Under the pieces are notes generated by a model, which saw nothing but the letters and a program-made list of their open reading frames with translations, searched no databases and was not told the origin of the DNA. The position numbers were made by a program, and so were the translations under genes. From the NCBI GenBank assembly GCA_036339375.1, contig JAYZBC010000066.1, positions 11,206 through 75,205 of the forward strand: 64,000 bases of DNA, given 5' to 3'. The DNA comes from Pseudomonadota bacterium. GTDB lineage: Bacteria > Pseudomonadota > Alphaproteobacteria > MPNO01 > UBA2964. Every line of letters begins with the position of its first letter. The first letter of the stretch is position 1. Positions 3,708-50,127 of the stretch are shown here, piece after piece.

Positions 3708-3728
3708 CATTTTAGAAAGATTATCAAA

Positions 3729-4661: not shown

Positions 4662-4664
4662 GCT

Positions 4665-13941: not shown

Positions 13942-13967
13942 AATTTCTGGTTATTAGAAGGTATTGA

Positions 13968-15185: not shown

Positions 15186-15193
15186 AAAAATAA

Positions 15194-23396: not shown

Positions 23397-23426
23397 AATT
23401 CCACTAAATGAGAGGCTTATTTGAAA

Positions 23427-24371: not shown

Positions 24372-24413
24372 ATTGGTTCCCTTTTTCTAGTTAAGCCTGC
24401 CGGATGGGCAAGG

Positions 24414-26130: not shown

Positions 26131-26168
26131 AATGTGTCTACCTCCCTCCTAGAACCCAAACCATACGG

Positions 26169-27656: not shown

Positions 27657-28198
27657 CCCTTGCGCCCACCCTCTACCTGATCGATGAGGTTCTATTTACG
27701 AATGCAAAAACATTATCTTTATTATGCATTCTAGTTACGATTTGGGTTCTTATAATTATCGGTATTTTATTACTATGTCTAGTATCAGAAGGTAAGGGTG
27801 CTAGTGGGGTTTTAAGTAATTTTTTATCTTTACGTGACATAGGTTTCTTGTTGAGAGGTTTGTATAGAAGTTTTCACCATCTCAAACTAGGACACCGTCC
27901 CAACATTAAAAGCATTGACTCCAAGAAAATGTATCTCACCGAAAACAGGTAATCTCCTTGATCAAAGCCGCCAAGGGAAAACCAGGGCACCGCGTTTGAG
28001 CCCGGACCCTTTCTGGTTGAAGGTCGTAGATTAGGATTTCTATTTGGTATTTGATGTGAAAAAAGCCGCGGCGGCATCAAATATCTTAAAATTGAAAAAC
28101 TGAAAATTACTAATTGAGCGTAGTTTGATGATAAAAATTTTATTATCAGGTCCAACTCCAGTTAATATGCTTAGAACTAGAAAAATCATTACATTATT

Positions 28199-34536: not shown

Positions 34537-35397
34537 ATGACGTCGACCATCGATATTGAACCTCTTTCGCCAGTTTTGGGGGCTTCCATTCGGGGAATAG
34601 ACCTGAAAAAGGCAATTGACGAGCAAACAAAGAAGGTCCTCAATAGTGCGTTTATAGAGTTTTCTTTCCTTTGTTTCCCTGATCAAACCTTAAATGCTGA
34701 AGATCAGTTGCGTTTTGCCAGTTTTTTCGGAAGAGGAGATGGTGGCGTTCGTATAACTCGAAGAGATAGTGGACAACGCCGTACCGGAAAACGCGGCGTG
34801 ATGTTTGTTAGCAATATTCGTAAAGATGGCAAACCTATCGGCGTATTACCTGACGGCGAAATGCAGTTCCATACTGATGGTGCACACCGAGAAAGCCCGT
34901 ATCGCGCAACAACTTTATATGCGATCAAAATTCCTTCCAAAGGTGGTGATACTTTATTTGCAAATCTTTACAAAGCATACGAGGCGCTTCCGGAAAAGAC
35001 TAAGAACCGTATTGAAAAATTGGTAACAACCTGTGTTTACGACTATGAGGCGCAAGACCGTAGCGAAACCGTAGCCGCTGATCCAATTTTACCCCGTGCC
35101 CAGCACCGACTGGTTAAAACTCACCCCGCTTCTGGCCGCAAAACTCTTTATCTCAGTCGTTTAATGACCCAAAAAATAAATGAGATTGAACCGGATGAGG
35201 GGGAAGAACTGCTAATGGCATTATTCGATCATGCTGAGCAGCCCGAGTTTATTTATGCACACAAATGGAACGTTAATGACCTTGTGATATGGGATAATCG
35301 ATGCCTCAACCACGCTCGGACTGATTTCCCAGCAAACGAAGAACGAATGTTGAGGCGGTATACGGTCTCCGAGCCAAATGCACCGGAAACCACTTAA
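34537..35397 (+). CDS. TauD/TfdA-family Fe(II)/2-oxoglutarate dioxygenase
   Basis: FHTD (HxD), GGDTLFA and WDNRCLNHAR motifs. Confidence 0.92.
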   Translation: MTSTIDIEPLSPVLGASIRGIDLKKAIDEQTKKVLNSAFIEFSFLCFPDQTLNAEDQLRFASFFGRGDGGVRITRRDSGQRRTGKRGVMFVSNIRKDGKPIGVLPDGEMQFHTDGAHRESPYRATTLYAIKIPSKGGDTLFANLYKAYEALPEKTKNRIEKLVTTCVYDYEAQDRSETVAADPILPRAQHRLVKTHPASGRKTLYLSRLMTQKINEIEPDEGEELLMALFDHAEQPEFIYAHKWNVNDLVIWDNRCLNHARTDFPANEERMLRRYTVSEPNAPETT

Positions 35398-36194
35398 AGA
35401 ATTCCCTGGTGTCGATTTAAAAAGTTTTTTAATTGATCGTTAAAATCCACAGGATTTTCTAAATTTGAAATGTGGCCCGCATTAGGTACAACCGCATGCT
35501 GTGCATTAGGAATTTTTCCTGCTGTCTGAGCAAGGATTTCAGGGGGGGCCCCCTTATCTTCCGCACCACCAAGTATGAGGGTTGGTATCCTTATTTCCTC
35601 CAACCTTGCCCCAAAAGAGAGTGTTTTGAGTGCCTCACAACAACCCGCATGACCGATTATATTGGTAGAACGTATCATTGAACGGACTTTCTCCAGAACG
35701 GGAATATTCGTAGAAACAGAGGCCTCGGTAAACCATCGCTGTATTGTAGGTTCTACCAAACCCTCCATACCTTGAGCAGCAGCCACATCGATACGGTGTT
35801 GAAAATAAGATTGATAATCAGGTGGCGCATCAGGACGGGAATCACATGCAATTAAACTCAACAGCCGATCACTATGTTCTTGTGCAAGTCCGTATCCCAT
35901 CATACCTCCAATCGACAGGCCACACCAATGGGTGCGTTCAACTCCCACATAGTCCAATAACGCTAAAGCATCTTCTATAATCATAGGGAAACTATAGGGA
36001 CCCGAAGGCGTTGAAGACTGACCGAGACCGCGGTGGTCATAACGTAAAATTTGGAAATCGTGTTTTAAAAGCTCTACTTGGTCGTCCCACAATGTCAAAT
36101 TATTACAAAGGGCATGTGCGAATGTTATCCAGGGCTTACCCTGAGTGCCCGTTACCTCGAAATTTATCGTAATACCATTGATCTTTGTTTTCAC
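35394..36194 (-). CDS. pcaD: 3-oxoadipate enol-lactonase-like alpha/beta hydrolase
   Basis: LRYDHRGLG, GLSIGGM nucleophile, RWFT and GHISNLE motifs. Confidence 0.72.
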   Translation of the reverse strand: MKTKINGITINFEVTGTQGKPWITFAHALCNNLTLWDDQVELLKHDFQILRYDHRGLGQSSTPSGPYSFPMIIEDALALLDYVGVERTHWCGLSIGGMMGYGLAQEHSDRLLSLIACDSRPDAPPDYQSYFQHRIDVAAAQGMEGLVEPTIQRWFTEASVSTNIPVLEKVRSMIRSTNIIGHAGCCEALKTLSFGARLEEIRIPTLILGGAEDKGAPPEILAQTAGKIPNAQHAVVPNAGHISNLENPVDFNDQLKNFLNRHQGIL

Positions 36195-36316
36195 CTGAAA
36201 CCTCTATATTTTTCGTTCCACATACGTGACGATTCCTAATATGTCCACCCATGGTTCTTGCTTTTAATCGTACTCTCCCTTAGACAAATATCTTAAAAAA
36301 AAAATATGAGGAAAAA

Positions 36317-37897
36317 ATGAGCACGGCACGAAAATTCGCAGCCCCCGGGGCACCGACTGATAAGGTCCGCGACCTTCGGGGTACTTTGGAATGGCTGGAA
36401 GCAGAGGGTGATTTGGCAATCACGGATAAGGAAGTAAACCCTGATCTTGAAATTATCGCCCTCCAAAAAAAATTTGATGGCGGTTGCCCAATGCTTTTTA
36501 ATAATGTCAAAGACAAGCCTAATAATCGTGTTGTTACCAACCTGCTCAGCGACCAAAACGTTATTAACAAAATGTTTGGATGGCCAAGTAACTCAATACG
36601 AACGCGCATGACGGCTGATGCCTTACGGCACCCCTTACCACCTGTTTTAATAAATTCTGATCAAGCCCCAGTTCAGGAAGTAGTCATAGAAAACCCCAAA
36701 GACGTGAACGATTACATTGTACCGGTCCGCCATACCGAGTTTGAACCTGAACTGACGGTAGGGTCGGGTATTCGGTGTGTCTCTGGTAAATATTTCGAAA
36801 ACGGTACAGACCTGGGATATAACCGAATGAATTTTCGTTGGGGAAATGTTGGCACCTTTCAAATCTCACCAGGATCTCACATGTGGCAAGTGGTAAGCCG
36901 CTATTACAAGGAAGAAAAACCCATCCCCATTACCATATGTTTTGGTGTACCTCCAGCTTGTACAATGATGGCAGGCGCAGGGTTTGATTATGTAATTCTT
37001 CCATCCGGATGTGACGAAATAGGGGTCGCGGGTGCTTTACAAGGAGCCCCAATTCGTTTGGTAAAAGCGCGTACTGTTGACGCTTTAACTCTAGCTGATG
37101 CGGAAGTCGTTTTAGAAGGATATGTGAATCCTCGGGATCGGAGATTTGAAACAGCGGAATCTGAAGAATCTGGATTACAAGGTCGTCATCATTTTCATCC
37201 TGAGTGGTCAGGCTACATGGGAAAGGCCTATAAAGCCCCAACTTTTCATTGTACAGCTGTTACCACTCGAGATCCTAAGACGAAACCCATTATTTTTGCA
37301 CTTGGTGTCCATACAATGGATGAACATAATATTGACACCACAGTCCGCGAGGCTGCAATTTTCGAGTTATGTGAACGTATGCAGCCAGGGATTGTGCAGG
37401 ATGTTAATATACCCTATTGCATGACGGATTGGGGCGGCGCCATTATCCAGGTAAAAAAACAAAATAAAATAGAAGAAGGTTGGCAGCGTAACTTTCTCTC
37501 TGCAATTCTATCCACCTCCCAGGGAGCACGATTGGCTATTGCCTGCTCCGAAGACACAGATATTTATGACATGGATGAGGTCATGTGGTGCCTAACAACC
37601 CGAGTTAATCCCCACACCGACATCCTAAACCCCCTTCCCGGAGGTCGCGGGCAAACTTTTATGCCAGCTGAACGAATGACAGCGGGAGACCGAGAATGGA
37701 CAGCCTCAAACACTCGTTTTGAAGGGGGTATGGGTATTGATACAACAGTACCCTATGGTTATGAGGAAGATTTCTTGCGTCCGCAATATCCCGTTGACAA
37801 GGTAAATCCTGAAAACTGGTTTGGCAAAACAGATATAAAAAATATGCAATCGCGCATGCATGGTTGGATGCATTCTTTGGCAAAGCATGGACGCTAA
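36317..37897 (+). CDS. UbiD-family prFMN decarboxylase of the phthaloyl-CoA decarboxylase clade
   Basis: Long stretches recalled from phthaloyl-CoA decarboxylases: GYNRMNFRWGNVGTFQISPGSHMWQV, FHPEW.GYMGKAYKAPTFH, IPYCMTDWGG, LPGGRGQTFMPAERMT and C-terminal W..SLA..GR. Confidence 0.85.
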   Translation: MSTARKFAAPGAPTDKVRDLRGTLEWLEAEGDLAITDKEVNPDLEIIALQKKFDGGCPMLFNNVKDKPNNRVVTNLLSDQNVINKMFGWPSNSIRTRMTADALRHPLPPVLINSDQAPVQEVVIENPKDVNDYIVPVRHTEFEPELTVGSGIRCVSGKYFENGTDLGYNRMNFRWGNVGTFQISPGSHMWQVVSRYYKEEKPIPITICFGVPPACTMMAGAGFDYVILPSGCDEIGVAGALQGAPIRLVKARTVDALTLADAEVVLEGYVNPRDRRFETAESEESGLQGRHHFHPEWSGYMGKAYKAPTFHCTAVTTRDPKTKPIIFALGVHTMDEHNIDTTVREAAIFELCERMQPGIVQDVNIPYCMTDWGGAIIQVKKQNKIEEGWQRNFLSAILSTSQGARLAIACSEDTDIYDMDEVMWCLTTRVNPHTDILNPLPGGRGQTFMPAERMTAGDREWTASNTRFEGGMGIDTTVPYGYEEDFLRPQYPVDKVNPENWFGKTDIKNMQSRMHGWMHSLAKHGR

Positions 37898-38024
37898 GAA
37901 TTTTTGGACTTTTGTTGCGCGTTTTGTTTTCAAATAAACAGGCTGTGAACAACCCTTTAACTTTTTGGTTTTGAAAATTAAAGCTAATTATTTTCTGCAG
38001 AATGCATTAAACTCGGTAAAAGAT

Positions 38025-39512
38025 ATGGGCAGCGGATTAATTGATCAACACGATCTTTGGACGGATGACCAAAAGAAGAGTGCTGAAGAAGTTATCAGCC
38101 GTCTAAACTCCGAAGGGATCCGTTTAGTACGAATGGCCTGGGGTGATACCCATGGCTGTTCACGTGTTAAGGAAGTCTCTATCCCCGTCTTTTTGAATTC
38201 ATTAAAAAATGGATACAACATTAACGTAGCCACCTACACGCTGGATGCGACAGGGGGACGTGTGTTTCGGTCGTTCGTTCCGGGCGGCGGCATGGACCTT
38301 AAAAAAATGACGGGTTCACCAAACTTAATTATCGTCCCGGATCCAAAAACTTTTCAAATTTTGCATTGGGCTCCTGGGATCGCCTGGGTTTTGTGCAATG
38401 AATATTTCGACGATTTTACACCTTTCCATTTTTCCTCCCGATTGTTGCTCCAAAATCAGGTAAATAGACTCAAAAATATTGGTATGGAAATGCGGGTCGG
38501 ACTCGAAGTAGAGTGGTACCTTAGGCGAATAGAACAGGACCACTTCGCACCTGAAAATACGGGCGTTCCTGGCAGAAGAGGTCAGCCCATTAAAACCCTG
38601 CCTGTAGAACCCGGCTATCTTTATCACTCTGAATCCAATTTCGATATTATGCAGCCAATACTAAGTGAGTTGGCTGAAGCTTATATGGCTCTCAAGTTGC
38701 CGCTTCGTTCTATAGAAAACGAATATGGACCAGGACAAATTGAATGCACATTTGAACCGCAGACAGCGTTGAGAGCAGCAGATGATTACCTTTTGTTTAG
38801 AACCGTCACGAAGCAAATTTGTCGACGGAGTGGCTATTTTGCAACCTTTATGTGCAAACCAGCCTTTGAAGGTTTTTACACGAGTGGCTGGCATTTACAT
38901 CAATCCCTCATTGACAAAACAAATAGCCAAAACCTTTTTATGCCTGAAAGTAATTCACAAACGCTTTCGAATTTGGGTAGTAATTTTATGGCCGGACTTC
39001 TTGAAAACGCTCAAGCTTCTACAGTATTTGCATCCCCTACCGTTAATGGTTACCACCGATTTCATCCGAACTCACTGGCACCAGACCGAGCGACTTGGAG
39101 CCACGATCACCGTGGTGTAATGGTAAGGGTCTTGGGCGGCTTCCAAGATACATCAACAAGGCTTGAAAATAGAATAGGCGAGCCCGCAGCAAATCCCTAC
39201 CTGTTTATTGCATCCCAAATAATTGCGGGGATTGACGGGATCGAAAGAAAAGCAATACCTTGGTCTGCTGACGATGACCCATACAATGCAGAGCGCCCAA
39301 AATTTCCAAGAACTCTTTCTGAAGCCTTAACAGCCTTGGAGGGTAGTCAACTTTTTCGAGACACTTTCGGAGATATTTTTATAAGATATTTTTTAGCACT
39401 TAAACGCGCAGAATTGAGTCGATTTGAACAATTTATTGAGCACAATAGTACCCAAGCAGGAGAAAATGGTGTCTCACAGTGGGAACAAAACGAATATTTT
39501 GATTTCTTTTAA
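38025..39512 (+). CDS. glutamine-synthetase-like gamma-glutamyl-arylamine synthetase (AtdA1/TdnQ type)
   Basis: N-terminal LWTDDQKKSAEEVI...VRMAWGD resembles AtdA1/TdnQ; GS motifs GLEVEWY, EYGPGQIE, SGWHLHQS and RLENR; directly upstream of a Rieske pair. ATG at 38025. Confidence 0.82.
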   Translation: MGSGLIDQHDLWTDDQKKSAEEVISRLNSEGIRLVRMAWGDTHGCSRVKEVSIPVFLNSLKNGYNINVATYTLDATGGRVFRSFVPGGGMDLKKMTGSPNLIIVPDPKTFQILHWAPGIAWVLCNEYFDDFTPFHFSSRLLLQNQVNRLKNIGMEMRVGLEVEWYLRRIEQDHFAPENTGVPGRRGQPIKTLPVEPGYLYHSESNFDIMQPILSELAEAYMALKLPLRSIENEYGPGQIECTFEPQTALRAADDYLLFRTVTKQICRRSGYFATFMCKPAFEGFYTSGWHLHQSLIDKTNSQNLFMPESNSQTLSNLGSNFMAGLLENAQASTVFASPTVNGYHRFHPNSLAPDRATWSHDHRGVMVRVLGGFQDTSTRLENRIGEPAANPYLFIASQIIAGIDGIERKAIPWSADDDPYNAERPKFPRTLSEALTALEGSQLFRDTFGDIFIRYFLALKRAELSRFEQFIEHNSTQAGENGVSQWEQNEYFDFF

Positions 39513-39547
39513 GTTTATCTCAAAGAGGTTCCAGGGAAAGCTCTACC

Positions 39548-40942
39548 ATGCCGCCAGATGATTTACATTTCCAGTCCTCAAAAGAAGCCGCGCCTGAGAT
39601 TGATTTCAACCAGCTAATTTTTGAAGAAAAGGTACACCAACGCCTTTACACAGACCACAGTATTTTTCGTGTAGAAATGGAAAAAATTTTTGGAGCTGTT
39701 TGGGTTTTTATTGCTCATGAAAGCCAAATTCCGAAAAAAAATGATTTTGTAACTTCAAAATTGGGTCCACGACCGTTGATTGTTGTCCGTGATTCTAGCG
39801 GAAAATTACGCGCACTCTATAATCGCTGCACGCATCGTGGTGCCACGGTATGTCGACAAACAAGTGGTTCAGCAAAATCATTTTCATGTCCCTATCACGG
39901 TTGGAGTTATTTTAACTCCGGAAGGCTCAGCAATGTCCCGTGGCCAGAAGGCTACGCGGATGATTTGCACGACACCAAGTATAATTTAGCACAGGTGCCG
40001 AGGGTACAGTCTTACCGGGGGTTCATTTTTGGAACGCTAAACAAAGAGGCGCCTTCACTACAAGATTACCTGGGTGGCGTAAAAAAACCGCTTGACGAAT
40101 GGCTGGACCGGCACCCCGGGGGAAGAGTAGTTTTTTGCGATGCAAACCGACTAAAGTTCAAAGGAAACTGGAAGCTTCTTTATGATAATTCCGCAGACGG
40201 CTATCACGTAATTTTTTCACACCGTTCTTTGCTCGCAATGGAAAACCGATTGGTCTCCGGCAATGAGCAAGACAAAGGAATGGCCTTTTATAAAAACAGT
40301 CCGGATAACGCCCAAATGTATGTAAAAGTTTTTGAAAATGGTCATCATTTTAAGGACAAAAGACCTAATATCGATAACAATCCCGGAGCGCTTTGGGCCA
40401 TTGAAGGTCCACATCCTGGTATGGAAAATTACGAAGCAGCTATAAGAAAAAAGCTAGGAAAAAAAGCAGACGATGTACTGGACCTCGCATCCTCCGAACC
40501 TGTAAATATTAATATTTTTCCCAACCTCCATATTCTTGGTAACCACGTTCAGGTTTCCCAACCCCTATCCCTAACGGAAACCGACACCACGTGGTGGGGT
40601 ACAGCTGTCATTGATTATGAAGATGAACTCCAAGGCTGTGAGGAGGAGATAAACGCGCTTCGCATGAGAACTCAAGAAAGCTTCCCTAATTTTGGTGAAC
40701 TGGATGACTTGATGAATTTTGAACAAATTCAAATTGGTTTAGCAGGCAAAGAAGATGAATGGGTATATATGCACAGAGGGTTAGGCGTACCTGGTCGAGT
40801 AAAACGGGATGAAGACGGCTATCTCATTGGCCCTTCAACAGATGAGGTGTTTTTACGGGAAACGATGAAGGAATATAAGCGCCTAATGATGGCCACTCCT
40901 AAATTACAAATCGAGCGCGATGTCAAAGCGGAATTGGTTTAA
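39548..40942 (+). CDS. Rieske oxygenase alpha subunit, aniline dioxygenase (AtdA3/TdnA1) type
   Basis: CTHRG...CPYHGW Rieske site, DGYHVIFSH, NIFPNLHILGN and NALRMRTQESFP..GELDD. Confidence 0.85.
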   Translation: MPPDDLHFQSSKEAAPEIDFNQLIFEEKVHQRLYTDHSIFRVEMEKIFGAVWVFIAHESQIPKKNDFVTSKLGPRPLIVVRDSSGKLRALYNRCTHRGATVCRQTSGSAKSFSCPYHGWSYFNSGRLSNVPWPEGYADDLHDTKYNLAQVPRVQSYRGFIFGTLNKEAPSLQDYLGGVKKPLDEWLDRHPGGRVVFCDANRLKFKGNWKLLYDNSADGYHVIFSHRSLLAMENRLVSGNEQDKGMAFYKNSPDNAQMYVKVFENGHHFKDKRPNIDNNPGALWAIEGPHPGMENYEAAIRKKLGKKADDVLDLASSEPVNINIFPNLHILGNHVQVSQPLSLTETDTTWWGTAVIDYEDELQGCEEEINALRMRTQESFPNFGELDDLMNFEQIQIGLAGKEDEWVYMHRGLGVPGRVKRDEDGYLIGPSTDEVFLRETMKEYKRLMMATPKLQIERDVKAELV

Positions 40943-41523
40943 TGCAAAATGACCCATCGCTGAGTTCCTACTACGTAGGTCACCAATTTTATAAAACACT
41001 TGTTAAAAGTTACACAAACTGGCAAACCGAAGAAGCAGAGATTCTGGATCCAGTTTTAAGGGATTGTTGCCGAGTGCTAATAGAAAAAGAAGCGCGGTTA
41101 CTGGATCAAAACAATTTGGACGACTGGCTGAATTTATTTATACCGGAATGCATTTATTGGGTCCCTGCAACGCCTAATGGAGGTGACCCTAGAAAAGAGA
41201 TAGCAGTTTGTTTTGATGACCGTCGCAGGCTAGAAGACAGAATTTTCCGATTACAAAACGAGTTTGCTTGGTCCCAACAACCAAAATCACGAACTGCCCG
41301 ATTAATTTCAAATGTTAGTCTTTTTTCTACTGAAATTAGTTCCGTTTTAATGGTGAGATCAAATTTTTTAACGACAGAGCTCCAGGCTGGTGACAAAAGG
41401 ACATACACGGGATGGTATGGGCATACAATTTGTCAAGACCACGACGTTTGGAAAATTAAAGTCAAGCAGGTAAATTTAATTGATTGCGATCAAAATTTAC
41501 GAAATCTGAGCATAATTCTTTAA
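40942..41523 (+). CDS. ring-hydroxylating oxygenase beta subunit (AtdA4/TdnA2-like)
   Basis: EARLLD, YWVP, DDRRRLEDRI.RL, SQQPKSRT and VNLIDCD; TAATG coupling to the alpha gene. Confidence 0.88.
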   Translation: MQNDPSLSSYYVGHQFYKTLVKSYTNWQTEEAEILDPVLRDCCRVLIEKEARLLDQNNLDDWLNLFIPECIYWVPATPNGGDPRKEIAVCFDDRRRLEDRIFRLQNEFAWSQQPKSRTARLISNVSLFSTEISSVLMVRSNFLTTELQAGDKRTYTGWYGHTICQDHDVWKIKVKQVNLIDCDQNLRNLSIIL

Positions 41524-41527
41524 AGGA

Positions 41528-42532
41528 TTAAACTCGAAGCTGGTGGAACGGCTCCAGAGCTTCTTTAACAAAAATTTCCTCAGGGGTTAAATGACGCTGT
41601 GTCACGCCCTGCTCAAAACAATACCGCAGAAATGCTTCCAAGGTTTTACGATTTTGGTCAATACCGTAGGGCCAATATTCACCACCAGGGAAAAACTCCT
41701 TTTCTGTCCGGTGTATGTATTGCTGTATCCAAGGGAGGGCAATCTGTGAAACATTCAAGTCTTTCATTCTCCGAACTGAATTTCTTTTTGCTTGATCAAA
41801 GGCATTGAATACATTCCGTGCAATCCACGGGTTTGCCTCATAGCTTGATCGACGTAAGGCCACAGTGTGCATAATTGGGAAAATACCAGATTTTGCAAAA
41901 AATTCGCGTTCAACGCCCTCATACTCTGGGTAGAGACGTGTAATTCGATTATCTCCTGCCAACATTCGACGTGGTGGATCAGCCGTCAAAATTGCATCCA
42001 GTTTTTCCTCAACCAGCATATCAGCTAATGATCCATCCGGCAGGTTTGTAAGGCTAACACCTTGGGGTGGTTTTTCCGCAGTATTATCAAGCCTTCCAGG
42101 AGAATTGGGTCCAAGTTGATACCAGTCAATTTCTGATAAAGGTATTCCCACAGTATCCGTCAGCCAGCCGCGAATATAGGTCGTAGCCGTCTGCGCCCAC
42201 TGCGGCAAACCCACCCTTTTTCCACGGAGTTGTTGTGGTGTTGTAATGCCACTATTTGAACGTATATAAACCCCTGATAAACGGAATAGCCGGGACGGAA
42301 AAACGGGGATAAGAACAAATGGAGCGTGCCCCCGATCTATCGCTTGACAAGACATCGCAAAGGAAATTTCTGAAATATCCCATTCTTGGTTTTGCAGAAA
42401 CCTTTTAAAAGTTTCTTCTACCTCCATAACCAGACTGGTAATTTCTATACCAACGGGTTTTACAGCACCCGTAAATAAGTCACGAACGTGATCATAATCA
42501 TTAATACCCATCGTCAGATGTATATCTGCCAT
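41528..42532 (-). CDS. 4,5-dihydroxyphthalate decarboxylase-like protein (periplasmic-binding-protein fold)
   Basis: YDHVRDL..G.V, PVFPSRLFR, LRGKRVGLPQWAQTA, GIFPIMH and YWPYGI..NRKTLE; no obvious signal peptide. Confidence 0.75.
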   Translation of the reverse strand: MADIHLTMGINDYDHVRDLFTGAVKPVGIEITSLVMEVEETFKRFLQNQEWDISEISFAMSCQAIDRGHAPFVLIPVFPSRLFRLSGVYIRSNSGITTPQQLRGKRVGLPQWAQTATTYIRGWLTDTVGIPLSEIDWYQLGPNSPGRLDNTAEKPPQGVSLTNLPDGSLADMLVEEKLDAILTADPPRRMLAGDNRITRLYPEYEGVEREFFAKSGIFPIMHTVALRRSSYEANPWIARNVFNAFDQAKRNSVRRMKDLNVSQIALPWIQQYIHRTEKEFFPGGEYWPYGIDQNRKTLEAFLRYCFEQGVTQRHLTPEEIFVKEALEPFHQLRV

Positions 42533-42633
42533 TTAAACCCCTTCGGCACAAAATTTTAACCTGTTGATAGCACGGGTTAGAAAGATATGCACCCGCAGTG
42601 GTCAATACCTTATGGTTAGTTTACGTTCCAAGT

Positions 42634-43935
42634 ATGGAGTCTTACACACAAAAATGGGTGGATAAAGACAACGGTTTCGTCAAACGTGAAGCCTTTGTGA
42701 GTGAGGATGTCTATAAATTAGAAATTGACCGCCTTTTTAACCGGAACTGGATATTTTTAGGACATGAAACCGAAATCCCTGACGAAGGAGATTTTGTAGT
42801 CAGAAATTTAGGGAATGCCCCAGTGATTGTGATTCGTGTTGATAAAAACAAAATAAAGGTTTTTCTTAACAGCTGCCGACACCGAGGGACTAAATTGTGC
42901 CGTGTAGATGCTGGCAAGGCAAAGAAATTTGTTTGCCCTTTTCATGGATGGACTTATGAAAAATCTGGCAAACTAATTTCTACAGGTTTTGACCACCATT
43001 TTCCTGAAAAAACAGATTTTTCCTTACTCAGCCTAATAGCAGCTCCAAGGGTGGAAACATTCAGAGGATTGATCTTTGGTTGTTGGGACAAGGATGTCGT
43101 TGGGTTAAACCAATTTCTTGGGGACATCGGCTGGTATTTAGATGCCTTTTTCAATCGTTCGCCCCAAGGAATGGAAGTGCTGGCTCCACCACACCGCTGG
43201 CGGACTAAGGCTAACTGGAAAATTGGAGCTCTAAATTTTATTGGTGATAATCAACACGGCTCAACAACTCATATTGGTCCTTCTACAGTAGATAAAAACC
43301 GAACCATTCGAGATGGATTTCGAAAATCTGCAGAGGAAAGTTTCCACGTGGTTACGGAAGGAGGCCACGGTTGCACCATGGCTTATTTAGTCCCGGGAAT
43401 GCCAAAAAAAAACTACCAAACGTACTCAGAAAAACTCAAACCCATTTATGAAAAAAACCTTCAACCGGGCCAATATGCCATGTTGCATAATTTAAGGGTT
43501 TGTGTCGGAACAGTGTTTCCCAACCTTTCTTTTGTTGAATCCCAGGTTGGGGCGGGCGAAAAAGCGCTAATCGTGCGCCTTTGGCACCCTGTCAACGCTA
43601 TTGAAATGGAGGTGCTAAGTTGGGTTTTTGCGGAAGTCGAAGCAAATGACGAATATAAGAAAAGTGCTCTCAGAAACGGGTTCCACAACTTTGGCGCTGC
43701 GGGGGTCTTTGAACAAGATGATATGGAGCTTTGGGCATCTGCAACTGCGGCTAGCGATAACTCAATCGCCCAACAATACCCCTTCAGTTTTCAAACAAGC
43801 CTGCGTTACATTTCCAAGCCAACGAAACAGCATGATTGGCCTGGTAAAACCTATAGACCAGTAGACACAGAAGTTGCCCAGTTCCACTTCATGCAGCATT
43901 GGGAAAAGGTGTTATTGGCTGGCGGACCATTTTAA
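42634..43935 (+). CDS. Rieske ring-hydroxylating oxygenase alpha subunit (phenylpropionate/biphenyl-like group)
   Basis: CRHRG...CPFHGW, NWK...NFIGDNQH...TH, VFPNLS and GVFEQDD; ATG at 42634 likely. Confidence 0.88.
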   Translation: MESYTQKWVDKDNGFVKREAFVSEDVYKLEIDRLFNRNWIFLGHETEIPDEGDFVVRNLGNAPVIVIRVDKNKIKVFLNSCRHRGTKLCRVDAGKAKKFVCPFHGWTYEKSGKLISTGFDHHFPEKTDFSLLSLIAAPRVETFRGLIFGCWDKDVVGLNQFLGDIGWYLDAFFNRSPQGMEVLAPPHRWRTKANWKIGALNFIGDNQHGSTTHIGPSTVDKNRTIRDGFRKSAEESFHVVTEGGHGCTMAYLVPGMPKKNYQTYSEKLKPIYEKNLQPGQYAMLHNLRVCVGTVFPNLSFVESQVGAGEKALIVRLWHPVNAIEMEVLSWVFAEVEANDEYKKSALRNGFHNFGAAGVFEQDDMELWASATAASDNSIAQQYPFSFQTSLRYISKPTKQHDWPGKTYRPVDTEVAQFHFMQHWEKVLLAGGPF

Positions 43936-43939
43936 AAAA

Positions 43940-44461
43940 ATGGTCGAACTCGAATTTAACCCCTCTGTAAGTGATACGGATTATCTTGCAATCCAGCGTT
44001 TCATGTATTACGAGGCTTTGCTTTTGGATGAACGCGCATATTTGGACTGGTTTTGTTTACTGACAGATGATATCCACTATAAAATCACAACCCAAGTTGC
44101 GCGCGCTACAGAAGATGGAATAATTCGAGTAGCAATCATCGATGAAGATATGCAAGCTTTAAAGATGCGTGTCGATCAAATTTCTAATCCAAAATTGACT
44201 CATGCCGAAAATCCCCCGACTTTAACGCGCCGGCTTATTTCAAATATTCAGGTTTCTTCGGGAAATTTAAAGAACACCTACACGGTAAAATCTAACCTTC
44301 TGCTGTACGAAAATCGAGCGGAAAACCTGAATGGCAGCGTGCACGCAGGCAAACGTGAAGACTTCCTCATAAAAATAGACCGAAGTTTCCGAATTGCACA
44401 AAGAATTGTAGATCTGGACCAAACCGTTCTTAGCAATAGTACACTGAGTTTGCTGCTCTAG
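43940..44461 (+). CDS. ring-hydroxylating oxygenase beta subunit
   Basis: FMYYEALLLDER, AENPPTLTRRLISN, GKRED and RIVDLDQ; ATG at 43940. Confidence 0.88.
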   Translation: MVELEFNPSVSDTDYLAIQRFMYYEALLLDERAYLDWFCLLTDDIHYKITTQVARATEDGIIRVAIIDEDMQALKMRVDQISNPKLTHAENPPTLTRRLISNIQVSSGNLKNTYTVKSNLLLYENRAENLNGSVHAGKREDFLIKIDRSFRIAQRIVDLDQTVLSNSTLSLLL

Positions 44462-44564
44462 ACCTAATTTTTGGATAAATTGCTATACCAAAAAAAGAAT
44501 TATTTGTGTTTTTCAATTTAGAAAATTTAAAGTCCTTTTGCACCTCTTCTTTTAAATCATTTAC

Positions 44565-46139
44565 CTAAAGCCTTGCTCTGAGGCGAAACCTCTGAATTTT
44601 ACCTGTCGCTGTTTTCGGCAAGTCATCTAAAAAATAAAACCAACGAGGGTATTTATAATGGGCAAGCCCTTCCCGACAATGATTTATAAGTGCTTTTTCC
44701 GTTTCCTCTCCGGCATCTTGTAGGTCGTTTAGTACGACGTAGGCCGCAGGTTTTATTAAACCCTCTTCGTCAACCTGGCCTACTACAGCGGCTTCAAGAA
44801 TTTTTGGATGCTCTATTAATCTTGCCTCGATTTCAAAAGGAGAACACCAGAGGCCACCCACCTTCAACATATCATCCCCTCGACCTGCATTGTGATAGTA
44901 GCCCTCAGAATCACGATAATACATATCGCCGGTGTTGAGCCATTCGCCCTTCATCGTTGCTGCTGTTTTTTCAGGGTTATTCCAATAAAGCCGTGCTGCA
45001 GATTCTCCCTTAACCCAGACAGTCCCGATTTCTTCCGGCTTTTTAATTTCATTTTCCAATTCATCAACAAGTTTTACCTGGTATCCGCTCACCGGTTTCC
45101 CAGAGGTCCCAAATTTATAATCTTCCTCTTTATTGGAAATAAAAATATGCAAGTTTTCAGTTGAACCCAGGCCGTCAATTATTACATTTTCAGTCCTTTC
45201 TATCCAACGCCGCAAAACGTCCCCGGGCAACGCCTCTCCGGCAGAAATGCATAATCTTAAAGAAGATAAATTCGGTTCTGAAGTCTCCATTTTACGGAGT
45301 TGCTGAGCGTAAAGTGTAGGCACTCCAAAAAATACTGTCGGTCTAAACCGTTCAATCATTTTAAAACTCATTTGGGGAGTCACTTTTTCATCTGAGAGAA
45401 CGATGGTTGCCCCCACCCAAAGGGGAAAAGTCATAGCATTACCAAACCCATAAGAATGAAAGAGTTTACTTACTGAAAACACCGTATCTTTTTCTTTCAA
45501 TCCAATTGTGTCCACAGCAAATCGTTCGGATGTACAAACCATAGATCGATGGGGGTGGACAACGCCCTTTGGGTTTCCAGTAGACCCCGAAGAGTAGAGC
45601 CAGAAACAGTCATCCAAATGTGTCCTTGCAGCTGGCTCTAGGAGCCCATTACAACTGCCCGCCTGTTCAAACAAAGTTTCAACGGTGGCAACATAAGCTG
45701 ATTTATGTTTGCACGCTGAAACGGCAGGCTCCAAAATTTCTGAGAATTGGGAACTGTATATAAAACCCGCACAGCCACAATCTGAAATGAGATATATGTA
45801 ATCCTCTTTACGAAGCAAAGTGTTAACGGGCGCTGGAATAATTCCAGCCTTTATAGCGCCAAAAAACAATGCAATGAATTCCGGACAATCACGGACTACC
45901 ATCATCAATCTTTCCCCTGGTTTTATACCTTCAGCCAGGAGGTGTTTTCCTACCCTGTTTACATGGTTGTAAAGATCTTGATAAGTCCATGTTATGTCTG
46001 CTGTTTTGATTGCCGCTTTGTGCCCTCGTCCTTGGTTCACATGTGCATCTATAAAAGGCACTGCTACATTAAAATTTCGAGCAAAGTTTAGCCGGCTGGG
46101 AACCACCGTATGATCGATTTCAACTGTGTTATCTTTCAT
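44565..46139 (-). CDS. benzoate-CoA ligase family protein
   Basis: FWLYSSGSTGNPKG, KLFHSYGFGN, SAGEALP, IDGLGSTE.LHIF, DDMLKVGG and LPKTATGKIQRFRLR motifs. Confidence 0.9.
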   Translation of the reverse strand: MKDNTVEIDHTVVPSRLNFARNFNVAVPFIDAHVNQGRGHKAAIKTADITWTYQDLYNHVNRVGKHLLAEGIKPGERLMMVVRDCPEFIALFFGAIKAGIIPAPVNTLLRKEDYIYLISDCGCAGFIYSSQFSEILEPAVSACKHKSAYVATVETLFEQAGSCNGLLEPAARTHLDDCFWLYSSGSTGNPKGVVHPHRSMVCTSERFAVDTIGLKEKDTVFSVSKLFHSYGFGNAMTFPLWVGATIVLSDEKVTPQMSFKMIERFRPTVFFGVPTLYAQQLRKMETSEPNLSSLRLCISAGEALPGDVLRRWIERTENVIIDGLGSTENLHIFISNKEEDYKFGTSGKPVSGYQVKLVDELENEIKKPEEIGTVWVKGESAARLYWNNPEKTAATMKGEWLNTGDMYYRDSEGYYHNAGRGDDMLKVGGLWCSPFEIEARLIEHPKILEAAVVGQVDEEGLIKPAAYVVLNDLQDAGEETEKALINHCREGLAHYKYPRWFYFLDDLPKTATGKIQRFRLRARL

Positions 46140-46345
46140 ATCTAAAACCTGTTTCTTGAATTAGGTATTGACCAATTCTTCCCTCCACGCAACCAAACAT
46201 ATAGTTTTTTCAGGAAAAAAATCATGCTGCGGCAAATTGTGTCTGTTCTATGGGTTGCTTTTACTGCTAATTGCTGGCAACACCATGATAAATTAGAATT
46301 TCTTTTGATAATTTTTGGTGTCAAAATGCAGATGGAAAACAAGTA

Positions 46346-49303
46346 ATGGCTGCAACGGCGGAAGTAAAAAAATATGTTGGGCAACCCATTGAACGGGTCG
46401 AAGATGAGACCTTACTTATGGGTAAAGCACAGTATTCCGATAATTTGCCGACTCGCGCTGGTACCGTGCATGCAGCAATTTTGCGGTCACCCCACGCGCA
46501 TGCTGAAATTCTCTCAATAGACACTTCTGAAAGTGAAAAAACACCTGGCGTTGTAGCCGTGATGACGGGTGAAGATATCCGGGAAATGTCAGAAGCTTTT
46601 CTAATAGTATTACGCCAACCCATTAACCAATGGGCGCTTGCGGTTGAAAAAGTTCGCTATGTAGGGGAGCCAGTAGCTTTAGTCGTCGCTCGGGATCGTT
46701 ATTTAGCTGAAGATGCGGTTTCAAAAATTTTGGTTGAATATAAAACACTCCAACCCGTTATCGATCAGGAACAAAGTATAAAAGACGATGCACCTATAGT
46801 GCATGAGGGAGTTGGCAGCAACGTCGTTTCAACAAGAGAATTTACATACGGTGACCCGGATTCTGCGTTTGCAAAAGCTGATAAAAAAATTGAAATGACA
46901 ATCCGTTACCCACGCAATTCGCACACACCCATTGAGGGTTTCGTAGTCACTGCGGATTATCATCCGGGAGAGAATCTTTATGATGTAGCGTCGAATTATC
47001 AGGGGCCTTTCACGTCTCATCCAGTAATGTCAATGGCACTTAGGGTTAAAAACTCTCAACTTCGCATGCGAACCCCACAATGGTCGGGTGGAGGTTTTGG
47101 GGTAAAGGTTCAAATTTTTCCTTATGTAGTCCTAATCTGCCTTGCATCGAAAAAAACGGGGAAACCGGTAAAATGGGTAGAAGACAGGCTAGAACATCTT
47201 TCTGCCGCTGCAGCGGCCCCCAATCGTCTTATCAAACTCGAAGCTGCGGTAAAAAATGACGGCAAAATAACAGCTTTCCGATTTGACCAGCAAGATGACT
47301 ACGGGGCCTTCCTGCGTGCCCCGATGCCGGGTCCTTTGTATCGAATGCACGGCATTTTAACAGGTGCCTACGATGTTAAAAATTTAGCCGTTACTAATCG
47401 AGTTGTAATGACCAATAAATGCCCGTCTGCAATGGTGCGAGGGTTTGGCGGGCCGCAAATGTATTACGCCATCGAGCGCGTGATGCACCAAATAGCGGTT
47501 CAGCTAAAATTGGATCCACTGGATGTCATTCGAAAAAATTTAATTCCAGCCGGGAGTTTTCCCTATCGGGCTGCGGCGGGAGCGCTTTTAGATTCTGGTG
47601 ATTATCCAACCGCTGTAAAGAAAGCAGTTTTGGAAGGTGGCTTAGAAGAACTTAAAAAGCGTCAAAAAAAAGCACGCGCCGAGGGAAAAAAATATGGGAT
47701 TGGGTATGCAGCAATTGTAGAACCTGCGCAATCTAATATGGGTTATCTCTCCAATATTTTATCTCGGGATGAGCGTGCAAAGAACCCTAAGGGCGGCGCA
47801 GTAGCTAATGCAACTGTGAACGTTGACCCACTTGGTACTGTAAGCGTCACAGCAGATTCAATACCGCAGGGGCAAGGTCATATGACAATTCTCTCTCAAA
47901 TCGTTGCAGATGAGTTAGGCCTTACACCAGACCAAATAAAGGTCAACTTGGATTTTGATACGGCAAAAGATGCTTGGTCAATTGCGACAGGAAATTATTC
48001 GTCACGATTTTCATCAGCAACCGCCGTTGCCTGCCAAATGGCTGCCCAAAAGGTTAAAGCCAAGTTGTCACGCATAGCAAGCCAAAACCTTAACGTTCCC
48101 GCGGATCAGCTAAATTTTGAAAATGGAAAAATTTTTGATCCAAAGAATCATGATAATTCCATCAATTTTTATCGCGCTGCTGGAGCTGCACATTGGACCC
48201 CTGGCAACCTTCCTGAAGAAATGGAGCCATGCGTCCGCGAGACCGGTTCTTGGTCTCCTCCAGAATTGGAGTCCCCAAACGAAAAAGATCAAATCAATAC
48301 CTCACTAACTTACGCTTTTGTGTTTGACTTTTGCGGTGTTGAAATTGACCCCGATACTGCCCAAGTCAAAATAGATAAGTACGTAACACTGCATGACTCT
48401 GGCCTGCTCTTAAACCCCCTGCTCGCCGACGGTCAAGTTCATGGTGCTTTTGCTTGGGCTGTTGGGTGTGCTTTATACGAAGAATTTATTTATGGGGAAG
48501 ATGGTAGTTTTTTAACAGGTACCTTTGCTGATTATCTCGTTCCTACTTCATGGGAAGTTCCTGAACCACAAATCATTCACATGGAGACACCGTCATTACT
48601 GACACCGTTAGGCGCCAAAGGGATTGGTGAAGGCAATTGCATGTCAACACCCGTATGTTTGGCAAATGCAGTCGCAGACGCACTTGATGTTGACGATTTA
48701 ACGTTGCCTTTAATACCCTCAAAAATCAGTGCTTTAATGCACGACGAAGAAAAATTCCCCAGCAAAAAGGAAACACCTGTACCTCCTGTAGCCGGAGATA
48801 ATGTTTTGAGGGGTAATGGGCAAACCACAGTACCTGCCAAACCACAAGAAGTTTGGAATACTTTGCTTGATTCCTCTGCTCTCGCGGCAGTTATACCAGG
48901 TTGTCATGAGTTAAAACGTATCACTGAAAATAGTTATCGTGCGGAGGTAACCCTTGGAGTGGGCCCTGTCCGGGGACGATTTATAGCTAACGTTGCCTTA
49001 ACGGAAATGCAGGAACCAAAAGAGACCAAAATTTCGGGGGGATTGATAGGCCCACTTGGAGCATCACAAGGGGTTGGACACGTGATATTAACTCCTGTCG
49101 AAAGCGGAACTACAGTCTCTTATGATTATTCGATAGAACTGTCGGGAACAATAGCCTCAGTAGGCGGACGCTTACTTGAAGGAGCAGCGAAAGCATTGGT
49201 TAAACAGTTTTTTCAAAGGCTGGTCAGCCAAGTTGGTGGAGAAGAAAATAAAGCAAGGCCATGGTGGCAAAGTCTATTTCGTATGCTGGGATTCATAAAA
49301 TGA
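46346..49303 (+). CDS. hmfA: molybdenum hydroxylase large subunit with C-terminal CoxG/SRPBCC domain (2-furoyl-CoA dehydrogenase type)
   Basis: YPRNS.TPIE, LRAP.P...YRMHG.LTGAY, FPYRAAAGALLDSG, KDAWS.A.GNYSSRF and GAKGIGEGN.MSTP recalled from HmfA; C-terminal IPGCHEL...GVGPVRG...VGGRLL. Confidence 0.8.
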   Translation: MAATAEVKKYVGQPIERVEDETLLMGKAQYSDNLPTRAGTVHAAILRSPHAHAEILSIDTSESEKTPGVVAVMTGEDIREMSEAFLIVLRQPINQWALAVEKVRYVGEPVALVVARDRYLAEDAVSKILVEYKTLQPVIDQEQSIKDDAPIVHEGVGSNVVSTREFTYGDPDSAFAKADKKIEMTIRYPRNSHTPIEGFVVTADYHPGENLYDVASNYQGPFTSHPVMSMALRVKNSQLRMRTPQWSGGGFGVKVQIFPYVVLICLASKKTGKPVKWVEDRLEHLSAAAAAPNRLIKLEAAVKNDGKITAFRFDQQDDYGAFLRAPMPGPLYRMHGILTGAYDVKNLAVTNRVVMTNKCPSAMVRGFGGPQMYYAIERVMHQIAVQLKLDPLDVIRKNLIPAGSFPYRAAAGALLDSGDYPTAVKKAVLEGGLEELKKRQKKARAEGKKYGIGYAAIVEPAQSNMGYLSNILSRDERAKNPKGGAVANATVNVDPLGTVSVTADSIPQGQGHMTILSQIVADELGLTPDQIKVNLDFDTAKDAWSIATGNYSSRFSSATAVACQMAAQKVKAKLSRIASQNLNVPADQLNFENGKIFDPKNHDNSINFYRAAGAAHWTPGNLPEEMEPCVRETGSWSPPELESPNEKDQINTSLTYAFVFDFCGVEIDPDTAQVKIDKYVTLHDSGLLLNPLLADGQVHGAFAWAVGCALYEEFIYGEDGSFLTGTFADYLVPTSWEVPEPQIIHMETPSLLTPLGAKGIGEGNCMSTPVCLANAVADALDVDDLTLPLIPSKISALMHDEEKFPSKKETPVPPVAGDNVLRGNGQTTVPAKPQEVWNTLLDSSALAAVIPGCHELKRITENSYRAEVTLGVGPVRGRFIANVALTEMQEPKETKISGGLIGPLGASQGVGHVILTPVESGTTVSYDYSIELSGTIASVGGRLLEGAAKALVKQFFQRLVSQVGGEENKARPWWQSLFRMLGFIK

Positions 49304-50127
49304 AACCAAACTCATTTGATTATCTCAAAGTTTTAACCTCTGAAGAGGCAGTAGCTGCCCTTTCAGAAGGGGGAGATGAAGCAAGAATAATTGCGGGAGG
49401 TCTTTCCTTGGTTCCAATTTTAAATTTTCGTTTAGCAGAACCACAAATGCTCATCGATATTTCCGGAGCAAAAACATTAAACTACATTCGAGAAACTGAT
49501 GATAAAGTTGAAATAGGTGCTTCTACCAGACAATGCCAGTTAGAGAACTGGAGTGATTTAGAGGAAAGACTACCCATGCTTAAAGCGGCCTTTCCTTTTA
49601 TTGGCCACTACCAAACCCGTGCAAAGGGGACAGTTTGTGGTTCTTTGGTCCATGCCGATCCCAGTTCGGAATTACCACTTTGTCTTGCAACACTTGGTGG
49701 GGAGGTTGTTTTGCAGTCAGCAAAAGGGGAAAGAACCCTGTCGGCTGAAGATTTTCAGACAGGAATGTTAACCACTGCCAAACGGCCCGACGAGATGGTC
49801 GTTTCTGCCCGATACCCCATAAAACAAAAAGGGGAGGGGTATGCGTTTACAGAAATGGCACAGAGACGGGGTGATTTTGCCATTGTTGCCCTTGCAGTCG
49901 TCACCAGCCAATCAAAAATAAGACTTGGTGTTGGCGGTGTCGCTGATCGACCGACCGTTCGTGAATGGGATATGCTAGACGGCGACGCACTTGATGATGC
50001 TTTAAACGAGTTTGCGTGGGATCTCGAAGGTTATGACGATATTCACGCAACTGCCCGCTATCGCCGCGAATTGGTCAGAAGGCTAGGGCGTCGCGTGATT
50101 AAGGAGGCAATTTCATGCAACAATTAA
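49300..50127 (+). CDS. hmfB: molybdenum hydroxylase FAD subunit
   Basis: MKP..FDY, AGGLSL, GTVCGSLVHADPSSE and RRGDFA; ATGA overlap with the large subunit. Confidence 0.8.
   Translation: MKPNSFDYLKVLTSEEAVAALSEGGDEARIIAGGLSLVPILNFRLAEPQMLIDISGAKTLNYIRETDDKVEIGASTRQCQLENWSDLEERLPMLKAAFPFIGHYQTRAKGTVCGSLVHADPSSELPLCLATLGGEVVLQSAKGERTLSAEDFQTGMLTTAKRPDEMVVSARYPIKQKGEGYAFTEMAQRRGDFAIVALAVVTSQSKIRLGVGGVADRPTVREWDMLDGDALDDALNEFAWDLEGYDDIHATARYRRELVRRLGRRVIKEAISCNN

Follow-up and report, generated by a model that had tools for sequence, protein, structure and literature searches.

Two separately inherited catabolic modules, a phthaloyl-CoA decarboxylase-type UbiD with its ligase and a glutamine synthetase-like/Rieske arylamine unit, probably joined by one lineage-specific insertion

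The stretch analysed here, called the window throughout, comprises 64,000 nucleotides (nt) of DNA from a Pseudomonadota bacterium (GTDB lineage Alphaproteobacteria; MPNO01; UBA2964; assembly GCA_036339375.1, contig JAYZBC010000066.1, positions 11,206 to 75,205 of the forward strand). Within it, a gene for a UbiD-family decarboxylase of the phthaloyl-coenzyme A (CoA) decarboxylase (PCD) type is directly followed by genes for a glutamine synthetase (GS)-like enzyme and for the alpha and beta subunits of a Rieske oxygenase, an arrangement that an earlier note had taken for a candidate hybrid pathway. With a probability of about 0.7, we read the locus as two separately inherited catabolic modules joined by one lineage-specific insertion. 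The alternative that the same note had set beside its pathway, two independent modules that are adjacent by chance, fits the evidence best. The adjacency would then reflect an insertion between convergent genes rather than a shared route, and an attractive pathway prediction is corrected accordingly.

The four co-directional genes described earlier are all present at their coordinates in the list of open reading frames (ORFs), and the domains of their products (UbiD_N, UbiD and UbiD_C; Gln-synt_C; Rieske and Ring_hydroxyl_A; Ring_hydroxyl_B) all exceed the curated Pfam cut-offs. The spacings claimed for them, namely 127 nt, 35 nt and a 1-nt overlap (TAATG), hold if the GS-like gene starts at the ATG at 38025, which lines up with the ATGs of orthologues in 10 related loci; an alternative in-frame TTG at 37965 would cut the UbiD–GS gap to 67 nt. 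The neighbourhood holds three further elements that had gone unmentioned, i.e., the gene at 41528–42532, a second Rieske alpha/beta pair and a convergent aryl-CoA ligase. In the following, G000 is the genome that carries the window (3.0 Mb in 98 contigs, 97% complete), g6 and g7 are genera, and labels of the form L0xx denote the loci compared. The features of the locus are as follows (aa, amino acids).

35394 to 36194, minus strand: alpha/beta-hydrolase, 3-oxoadipate enol-lactonase-like (Pfam Abhydrolase_1), divergent from the UbiD gene
36317 to 37897, plus strand: UbiD-family decarboxylase, PCD orthologue, 526 aa (PF20695, PF01977 and PF20696 above cut-off)
37898 to 38024, no strand: UbiD–GS intergenic gap of 127 nt, the left junction of the inserted block by gene order
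38025 to 39512 (ORF from 37965), plus strand: GS-like glutamyl-organic-amine synthetase (GoaS type), homologue of AtdA1/TdnQ/NpaA1 (Gln-synt_C)
39548 to 40942, plus strand: Rieske oxygenase alpha subunit, aniline-dioxygenase type, 464 aa (Rieske and Ring_hydroxyl_A)
40942 to 41523, plus strand: Rieske oxygenase beta subunit, 193 aa (Ring_hydroxyl_B)
41528 to 42532, minus strand: 4,5-dihydroxyphthalate decarboxylase family protein, 334 aa (match to PDB 9jp7)
42598 to 43935, plus strand: second Rieske alpha subunit, naphthalene/phthalate-3,4-dioxygenase-like (PDB 2b1x, 268 bits; 9jp5, 227 bits)
43874 to 44461, plus strand: second Rieske beta subunit (Ring_hydroxyl_B, 93 bits)
44565 to 46139, minus strand: aryl-CoA ligase convergent on UbiD, candidate phthalate-CoA ligase (AMP-binding domains)

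The distribution of the adjacency among relatives carries most of the argument. The UbiD and the GS-like protein each served as query against 61 genomes of the same order. A UbiD (PCD) orthologue occurs in 58 of them, and 39 encode both a close UbiD (mostly 74–87% identity; 70–72% for two fragmentary matches) and a close GS-like protein (55–68% identity). The two genes are adjacent in 11 of these 39 genomes, namely G000 and 10 of the 12 genomes of the sister genus g7, with a gap of 75–79 nt in g7 and 127 nt in the window. In another 11 they share a contig but lie 0.35–5.5 Mb apart, and in the remaining 17 they are on different contigs. The survey proposed in the earlier note, of whether the UbiD–GS–Rieske adjacency recurs in other genomes, thus finds it confined to G000 and g7. 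The other two g7 assemblies (~70% complete) hold neither orthologue. Among the ten g7 genomes with the adjacency, G019 (C3:420178-423304) has UbiD residues 6–369 only, along with GS-like residues 187–495 interrupted by one TGA; these fragments could represent locus decay or an assembly fault.

Loci without a GS gene display the site in its simpler form. The order of hydrolase (minus strand), UbiD (plus strand) and ligase (minus strand) is found in L020, L021, L024 and L027, which belong to three other genera of the family, and the UbiD/ligase order recurs in L023, L025 and L028 of a second family; in all seven, the ligase orthologue (66–84% identity) stands directly after UbiD on the opposite strand. 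Because UbiD directly abuts the ligase in these sister loci, the block at 38025–44461 appears to have been inserted between the convergent UbiD and ligase genes. A GC-rich hairpin with a T-run stands immediately after the UbiD stop in loci without the insertion. In a quick maximum-likelihood (ML) search with midpoint root, from which isophthaloyl-CoA decarboxylase and the PCDs of sulfate reducers were left out, the UbiDs of G000, G008 and g7 form one subclade (SH-like approximate likelihood-ratio test, SH-aLRT, 94), so that one insertion event suffices. In G008 (L010), neither a GS-like gene nor a ligase was detected in the 1.5 kb of sequence after UbiD. The flanks of the window and of L031 are syntenic out to the molybdenum hydroxylase genes. 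The divergent hydrolase adjoins UbiD, at 74–79% identity, in 14 of 19 relatives' loci (L011–L022, L024 and L027), with or without the GS block, and is part of the family's conserved PCD neighbourhood; it scores 229 bits against TIGR02427, under the cut-off of 255.85. Judged by gene order, the UbiD–GS adjacency is derived, not ancestral.

The GS–Rieske alpha–beta triad is an independent unit. A survey with one genome per species gave 39 loci encoding GS-like relatives; of the 31 whose sequence continues downstream, 28 have aniline-type alpha and beta genes after the GS gene, and the triad occurs in metagenome-assembled genomes labelled Rhodospirillaceae, Hyphomicrobiales, Xanthobacteraceae, Burkholderiales and Gammaproteobacteria. 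In 34 of the 39 loci, the sequence extends 2 kb or more upstream and shows no PCD-type UbiD. A PCD-type UbiD stands upstream of GS only in L029 and L031, whose UbiD–GS gaps are identical to those of L012 and L019 from g7; these are therefore the same stretches by appearance and not new cases. In genus g6, the triad and the decarboxylase-like gene (~2 kb after beta) occupy a separate locus (L032–L034), and the g6 UbiD abuts the ligase (L027). The decarboxylase-like gene is joined to the GS–Rieske unit in marine relatives; at 78–82% identity to the window's gene, it accompanies the triad in L029 and L031–L034. The second Rieske alpha/beta pair is variable, being present in the window and L029 and absent from L031. 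Since GS, alpha, beta and the decarboxylase-like gene co-occur at other loci and the second pair varies, the mobile unit would consist of the former four genes.

Several observations weigh against this reading. A consensus scan of the gap at 37898–38024 found no plus-strand terminator-like or promoter-like site, although the scan has low power because site counts over the whole region are at or below the shuffled expectation, and the RNA fold of the gap has a z-score of 0.39. With no detectable terminator in the gap, and with the ancestral hairpin lost in this lineage, read-through from UbiD to GS is possible. The arrangement is kept in at least 10 g7 species, which is compatible with selection for linkage, and members of "phthalate" families occur in both modules (the PCD and the relative of dihydroxyphthalate decarboxylase). 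A PCD paralogue on contig C36 of G000 also has a Rieske gene between itself and a convergent CoA ligase, which could represent a recurrent functional pairing. Finally, a ferredoxin or reductase for the oxygenase is not encoded in cis, and the UbiD tree is a quick midpoint-rooted search.

These points could be combined into a loose functional island, in which the biochemistry of the modules is separate but their substrates are related (phthalate via CoA activation and PCD; aminophthalate via glutamylation, dioxygenation and decarboxylation) and their genes are co-expressed by read-through. The loss of the ancestral post-UbiD terminator, the "phthalate" families on both sides and the parallel layout at the C36 paralogue all agree with such an island, as does an arginine at position 81 of the GS-like enzyme, which suggests an anionic arylamine. 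We consider it unlikely, nevertheless. Four RNA-library runs (X1–X4, Logan contigs) were mapped to 35300–46400, giving 14 contigs (151–379 nt, ≥95% alike) on UbiD, GS, both Rieske alpha genes, the first beta gene and the ligase; these short contigs cover parts of genes, and none reaches the gap at 37898–38024, let alone bridges it. An insertion between convergent genes lands on neutral ground and calls for no functional reason. Moreover, the UbiD–GS gaps of g7 (L011–L019, at ~3090–3140) contain an inverted repeat of ~14 pairs, CCCTGTTTGA..TGGC / GCCA..TCAACAGGG, which is kept in 6 of 8 gaps (L014 not included) with two-sided changes at seven pairs. It could be a separate operator serving the GS operon, or an RNA hairpin, and it is not recognisable in the window gap. 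The earlier note had named a unique adjacency together with a separate promoter at 37898–38024 as telling against its pathway; the adjacency is indeed lineage-restricted, and the promoter is neither shown nor excluded. As a separate observation, the 10-nt string AATTTTTGGA occurs at 37899–37908, after the UbiD stop, and again at 44466–44475, after the stop of the second beta gene. It is the only string common to both insertion junctions and may be a chance occurrence in AT-rich spacers.

Returning to the two modules joined by insertion, the inserted block at 38025–44461 would constitute the arylamine module. The GS-like protein matches PDB 8wwu with 455 bits, a code that occurs in the available text of the NpaA1 paper. 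Over its full length it shares 44.6% identity with its counterpart on the IncP plasmid pTB30 and 41.9% with NpaA1 (pJS3066). The first Rieske alpha subunit is 42% identical to those of pTB30 and pJS3066 (42.3% to the latter), and the first beta subunit is 41.7% and 37.1% identical, respectively. The proposed homology of the GS-like and Rieske proteins to the Atd/Tdn/Npa type is therefore upheld, at 37–45% identity to the components of pTB30 and to NpaA1/A3/A4. Both Rieske alpha subunits of the window retain the CxH-x17-CxxH motif and a His pair near residue 220; the start of the second beta gene is uncertain, as its listed TTG overlaps the second alpha gene.

The residues that line the substrate tunnel of the GS-like enzyme point away from neutral amines. 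In an alignment whose NpaA1 numbering was checked against the residues named in the paper, the amine-binding glutamates E232 and E234 are conserved in 36 of 36 sequences. The class of glutamyl-organic-amine synthetases (GoaS), proposed in PMC11335346, has a hydrophobic aromatic bottleneck (F75′, F86′, W235) and a hydrophobic residue 81, which the window protein does not retain except for F86; the class is further marked by loss of the catalytic Asp50′ and of Glu-flap residues of GS and by a lack of activity on ammonium. Its tunnel residues are L75, R81, F86 and Y235, it differs from NpaA1 at the substrate-choice residues by F75L, M81R, V201Y and W235Y, and its tunnel loop is polar. Position 81 is Met in NpaA1 and Phe in pTB30, whereas 31 of the 33 clade sequences have Arg there; two Dormibacterota rows (43% identity) have Val. 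Positions 81 and 235 are decisive for substrate choice according to the available text of the NpaA1 paper, so that Arg81 sits where experiment showed substrate choice to be set.

The gene at 41528–42532 adds to this picture. Its product matches PDB 9jp7, "4,5-dihydroxyphthalate decarboxylase", over residues 4–327 (E 1.4e-58, 201.6 bits), is 36–41% identical to the products of plasmid genes annotated as 4,5-dihydroxyphthalate decarboxylase, and has no match in Pfam or NCBIfam. In soil-type loci, a TctC carboxylate-binding receptor and a LysR regulator lie beside the GS gene. Together with Arg81 and the precedent of the Sad system described below, the decarboxylase partner and these TctC/LysR neighbours indicate that the substrate is probably a carboxylated arylamine, e.g., an aminophthalate or aminobenzoate. 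The GS-like enzyme would gamma-glutamylate the arylamine with adenosine triphosphate (ATP), the aniline-type Rieske alpha–beta oxygenase would dioxygenate the glutamylated ring, removing the nitrogen and leaving a catechol, and the 4,5-dihydroxyphthalate-decarboxylase-like enzyme would remove a carboxyl group from the product. A scheme from 4-aminophthalate through 4,5-dihydroxyphthalate to protocatechuate is neat but unproven. The earlier guess of an amino-substituted aromatic carboxylate thus gains some support for the GS–Rieske unit alone, through Arg81 and the decarboxylase-like partner, and none for a UbiD-linked route.

The same module could instead be an ordinary aniline/chloroaniline-type dioxygenase for neutral arylamines with an unrelated decarboxylase-like neighbour, and the resemblance of the three components to the pTB30 and NpaA systems as well as the conserved E232/E234 and F86 would suit it. 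This is improbable in view of Arg81 and the polar tunnel loop, which replace hydrophobic residues of NpaA1 and pTB30, and of the decarboxylase-like gene, which co-migrates with the triad between loci. Furthermore, no type-1 glutamine amidotransferase (AtdA2/TdnT) was found in the window, in G000 (E 1e-8) or in the 39 GS loci (E 1e-5), and no AtdA5/TdnB-type reductase was found in the window or the 39 GS loci (E 1e-5). The sole match to an AtdA5-type reductase in G000 (E 1e-8) has 25.6% identity and lies on contig C46 beside another Rieske pair. The widespread three-gene GS–Rieske unit without the textbook aniline amidotransferase and reductase is, on our reading, a candidate for the breakdown of carboxylated arylamines.

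Two further observations concern GS-like loci elsewhere. The genes upstream of the triad in L032 were considered as a protocatechuate 4,5-cleavage set, an assignment dropped after an NCBIfam search, which supports no more than an HpcH/HpaI-type aldolase, a member of the FAA-hydrolase family and a lactonase resembling 4-sulfomuconolactone hydrolase, the last at 292 bits where the cut-off is 500. G000 itself carries a second GS-like gene (C49:6491-9249, L075), 43% identical to that of the window and with Thr at position 81, directly downstream of a LigXa/VanA-type single-subunit Rieske oxygenase on the minus strand; a Cupriavidus plasmid has a similar order of alpha-only Rieske, GS, ferredoxin and reductase.

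The module that was ancestral at the site would comprise the divergent alpha/beta-hydrolase, the PCD-type UbiD and the convergent aryl-CoA ligase of benzoate/anthranilate type. The UbiD matches Pcd of Thauera chlorobenzoica (PDB 8pmk/8oz5) with 862 bits (E 1e-258, 511 residues aligned), whereas the next-best solved UbiD, a protocatechuate decarboxylase, reaches 137 bits. It is 69.8% identical to the copy on plasmid 2 of Aromatoleum aromaticum EbN1, a conjugative plasmid on which a UbiX gene adjoins the decarboxylase gene and IS21 and IS1182 insertion sequence (IS) elements lie near. The PCD clade of the quick ML tree (SH-aLRT 99) contains the EbN1 enzyme, both close paralogues of G000 and the orthologues of its relatives. 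The earlier assignment of this UbiD to the PCD clade is thereby confirmed, and the enzyme falls inside that clade rather than outside it, the placement that the note had listed as counting against its proposal.

Candidates for the remaining functions of a phthaloyl-CoA route are encoded in the genome as well. All known phthalate clusters contain a UbiD-type PCD plus UbiX, and denitrifiers activate phthalate with a CoA transferase, whereas a sulfate reducer uses an ATP-dependent ligase for this step, as far as the accessible part of a 2026 review describes. In G000, a UbiX-type flavoprotein (PF02441, 140.6 bits, 225-aa frame) is encoded on contig C56, unlinked to the window. The ligase at 44565–46139 has anthranilate-CoA ligase 4wv3 (424 bits) and benzoate-CoA ligase 2v7b (401 bits) as its best structures. 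BoxB (855 bits), BoxC (899 bits) and a benzoate-CoA ligase family protein, all above cut-offs, are encoded on contig C36, 8 kb from the second PCD paralogue. An aerobic hybrid route of phthaloyl-CoA/Box type has reportedly been described in denitrifiers. From the observed homologies, gene order and distribution we infer the substrates and reactions of this module: the ligase would convert phthalate, or a close ortho-dicarboxylate, to its CoA thioester, and the UbiD, dependent on prenylated flavin mononucleotide (prFMN) that the unlinked UbiX would supply, would strip the free carboxyl group to yield benzoyl-CoA, which could be consumed aerobically via the BoxB/BoxC epoxide pathway of G000 itself.

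The UbiD family is strikingly expanded in this lineage, with 35 genes above the Pfam cut-off in the 3.0 Mb of G000 (e.g., on contigs C25, C45, C27 and C83), including tandems at C25 38350-43024 and C45 61998-65184. Three of the 35 are PCD-like, i.e., the UbiD of the window, the C36 paralogue (69% identical) and, on C25, a more remote member that shares 34% identity with the EbN1 enzyme, and the other 32 lie outside the clade. In four of the order's five families a genome has 25–43 first-look candidates, two incomplete assemblies excepted, against mostly 0–16 in the other genomes listed for the class. We found no report of such an expansion in the open-access literature. In a class-wide sample of 301 genomes, including G000 and with relatives at least 90% complete, a PCD orthologue occurs in 8, and in 5 of 298 outside the window's own family. 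The EbN1 PCD groups with the C36 paralogue in the quick tree. There are thus hints of a PCD gene reservoir in this order. A close PCD orthologue, an aryl-CoA ligase and the Box pathway together in an oxygenase-rich lineage bear on the age and naturalness of the phthaloyl-CoA route.

The gene of the C36 paralogue (3219-4808; L074, G000:C36:1-20000) is followed by a VanA-type Rieske oxygenase gene and a convergent AMP ligase gene. Further along the contig are genes for a Rieske alpha subunit, a class-III CoA-transferase, boxC, boxB, 3-hydroxybenzoate 6-monooxygenase, a benzoate-CoA ligase family protein and an amidase.

A more ambitious synthesis would hold that terminator loss fused both routes into one operon for nitrogen-bearing benzene-polycarboxylates, in which GS, Rieske oxygenase and decarboxylase take aminophthalate to protocatechuate while ligase and PCD take phthalate to benzoyl-CoA for Box. 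In this synthesis, PCD perhaps goes back a long way in an oxygen-using alphaproteobacterial order, inherited vertically and directed at natural aromatic polycarboxylates, and is not a recent xenobiotic invention of anaerobes, and the order is maybe the source pool of the plasmid-borne, IS-flanked genes of denitrifiers. Taken as a whole, we regard it as quite unlikely. Very unlikely is the hybrid linear pathway originally proposed, in which the four genes form one route and a single amino-substituted aromatic dicarboxylate is CoA-activated, decarboxylated by UbiD, N-glutamylated and dioxygenated: the co-directional genes, the short gap without a terminator match, the linkage maintained in 11 genomes and the presence of the aryl-CoA ligase and dihydroxyphthalate-decarboxylase-like genes in the same block would fit it, but the linkage is missing in 28 of the 39 genomes with both genes (in 11 of them by 0.35–5.5 Mb), the triad stands without UbiD in 34 other loci and the PCD–ligase pair without the triad in seven, the characterised GS-like enzymes use free amines with no CoA-thioester substrate described in the available text of the NpaA1 paper, and the CoA ester would need either hydrolysis or passage through the oxygenase, with no evident gene for this.

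Elsewhere in the window, a block at 20001–28000 has 51–54% G+C in surroundings of 36–46% G+C and is possibly acquired DNA; it holds genes for a fused hydantoinase/oxoprolinase A+B (1209 aa), a luciferase-like monooxygenase, two CoA-transferase subunits and a pyridoxal phosphate (PLP) enzyme. Three tandem major facilitator superfamily (MFS) transporter genes (~405–413 aa each) occupy 12721–16435 on the plus strand, adjoined by a fourth MFS gene at 10689–11984 on the minus strand. At 46346–50609, the large subunit of a molybdenum hydroxylase is encoded as a 985-aa fusion with a CoxG/SRPBCC domain, and after it come flavin adenine dinucleotide (FAD) and 2Fe-2S subunits and an Amidohydro_2 gene, a set that is syntenic with the ligase in L031.

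Each half of the joined locus is of a known kind. The arylamine half shares the order of GS-like, alpha and beta genes with the aniline/chloroaniline cluster of pTB30, at the identities given above. In both pTB30 and pJS3066 the order is GS, type-1 amidotransferase, alpha and beta, and pTB30 adds a reductase and a LysR regulator after beta. In contrast to pTB30, the window has no amidotransferase between GS and alpha and neither reductase nor LysR after beta, carries Arg where the tunnel of pTB30 has Phe, and has the dihydroxyphthalate-decarboxylase-like gene attached. We take the genes of this cluster type to be those named AtdA1–A5, TdnQTA1A2B and DcaQTA1A2B; the record of pTB30 reads "glutamine synthetase family protein" and the like. 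The NpaA1–A4 system of Pseudomonas sp. JS3066 (8wwu, 8wwv, 8x6z) resembles the window in its A1, alpha and beta components and in E232/E234 and F86, and differs from it by the amidotransferase and by the four substitutions at the substrate-choice residues.

A precedent by gene content is SadABCD of Hydrogenophaga, a 4-aminobenzenesulfonate 3,4-dioxygenase (PMC5632844), which combines a GS-like protein and a Rieske oxygenase for an anionic arylamine. Its genes, as listed in the portion of that paper available to us, are sadA for the dioxygenase, sadB for the GS-like protein, sadC for a ferredoxin and sadD, with neither an amidotransferase nor a beta subunit in the list. The window, unlike it, has an alpha–beta oxygenase and no electron carriers in cis, and the likeness drawn here is one of gene content. 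The decarboxylase-like protein resembles 4,5-dihydroxyphthalate decarboxylase (PDB 9jp7, and replicon genes of Burkholderia and Novosphingobium) over its full length. The usual context of that enzyme is a phthalate 4,5-dioxygenase/dehydrogenase pair, whereas in the window and L032 it belongs to a GS–Rieske arylamine unit.

The open-access literature, with subscription papers and supplements outside the search, contained nothing that pairs phthaloyl-CoA decarboxylase with glutamine synthetase, no GS–Rieske system described for aminobenzoate or aminophthalate, and nothing on KU-46 with aminobenzoate. A 4-aminobenzoate system called "pab", which the earlier note also named, was not confirmed there. 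The arylamine half is accordingly a variant for which that literature yielded no description, namely a three-gene core without amidotransferase and reductase, with Arg81 and with a decarboxylase partner.

The PCD half corresponds to Pcd of Thauera chlorobenzoica (PDB 8pmk, 8oz5, 8p02) and its EbN1 orthologue by a full-length match, by membership of the same clade and by the presence of UbiX in the genome. It differs from both in its host, which is labelled Rhodospirillaceae, is rich in oxygenases and neither denitrifies nor reduces sulfate, and in its likely downstream route, the aerobic Box pathway. Compared with the EbN1 gene, UbiX is not adjacent, and the gene occurs almost throughout the sampled order rather than on an IS-flanked plasmid. 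Unlike the Pcd clusters of denitrifiers, it is partnered by an adenosine monophosphate (AMP)-forming aryl-CoA ligase, the activation type of a sulfate reducer according to the accessible part of the 2026 review, with no succinyl-CoA transferase. The PCD half is thus a new member of a known family in an unusual host and context.

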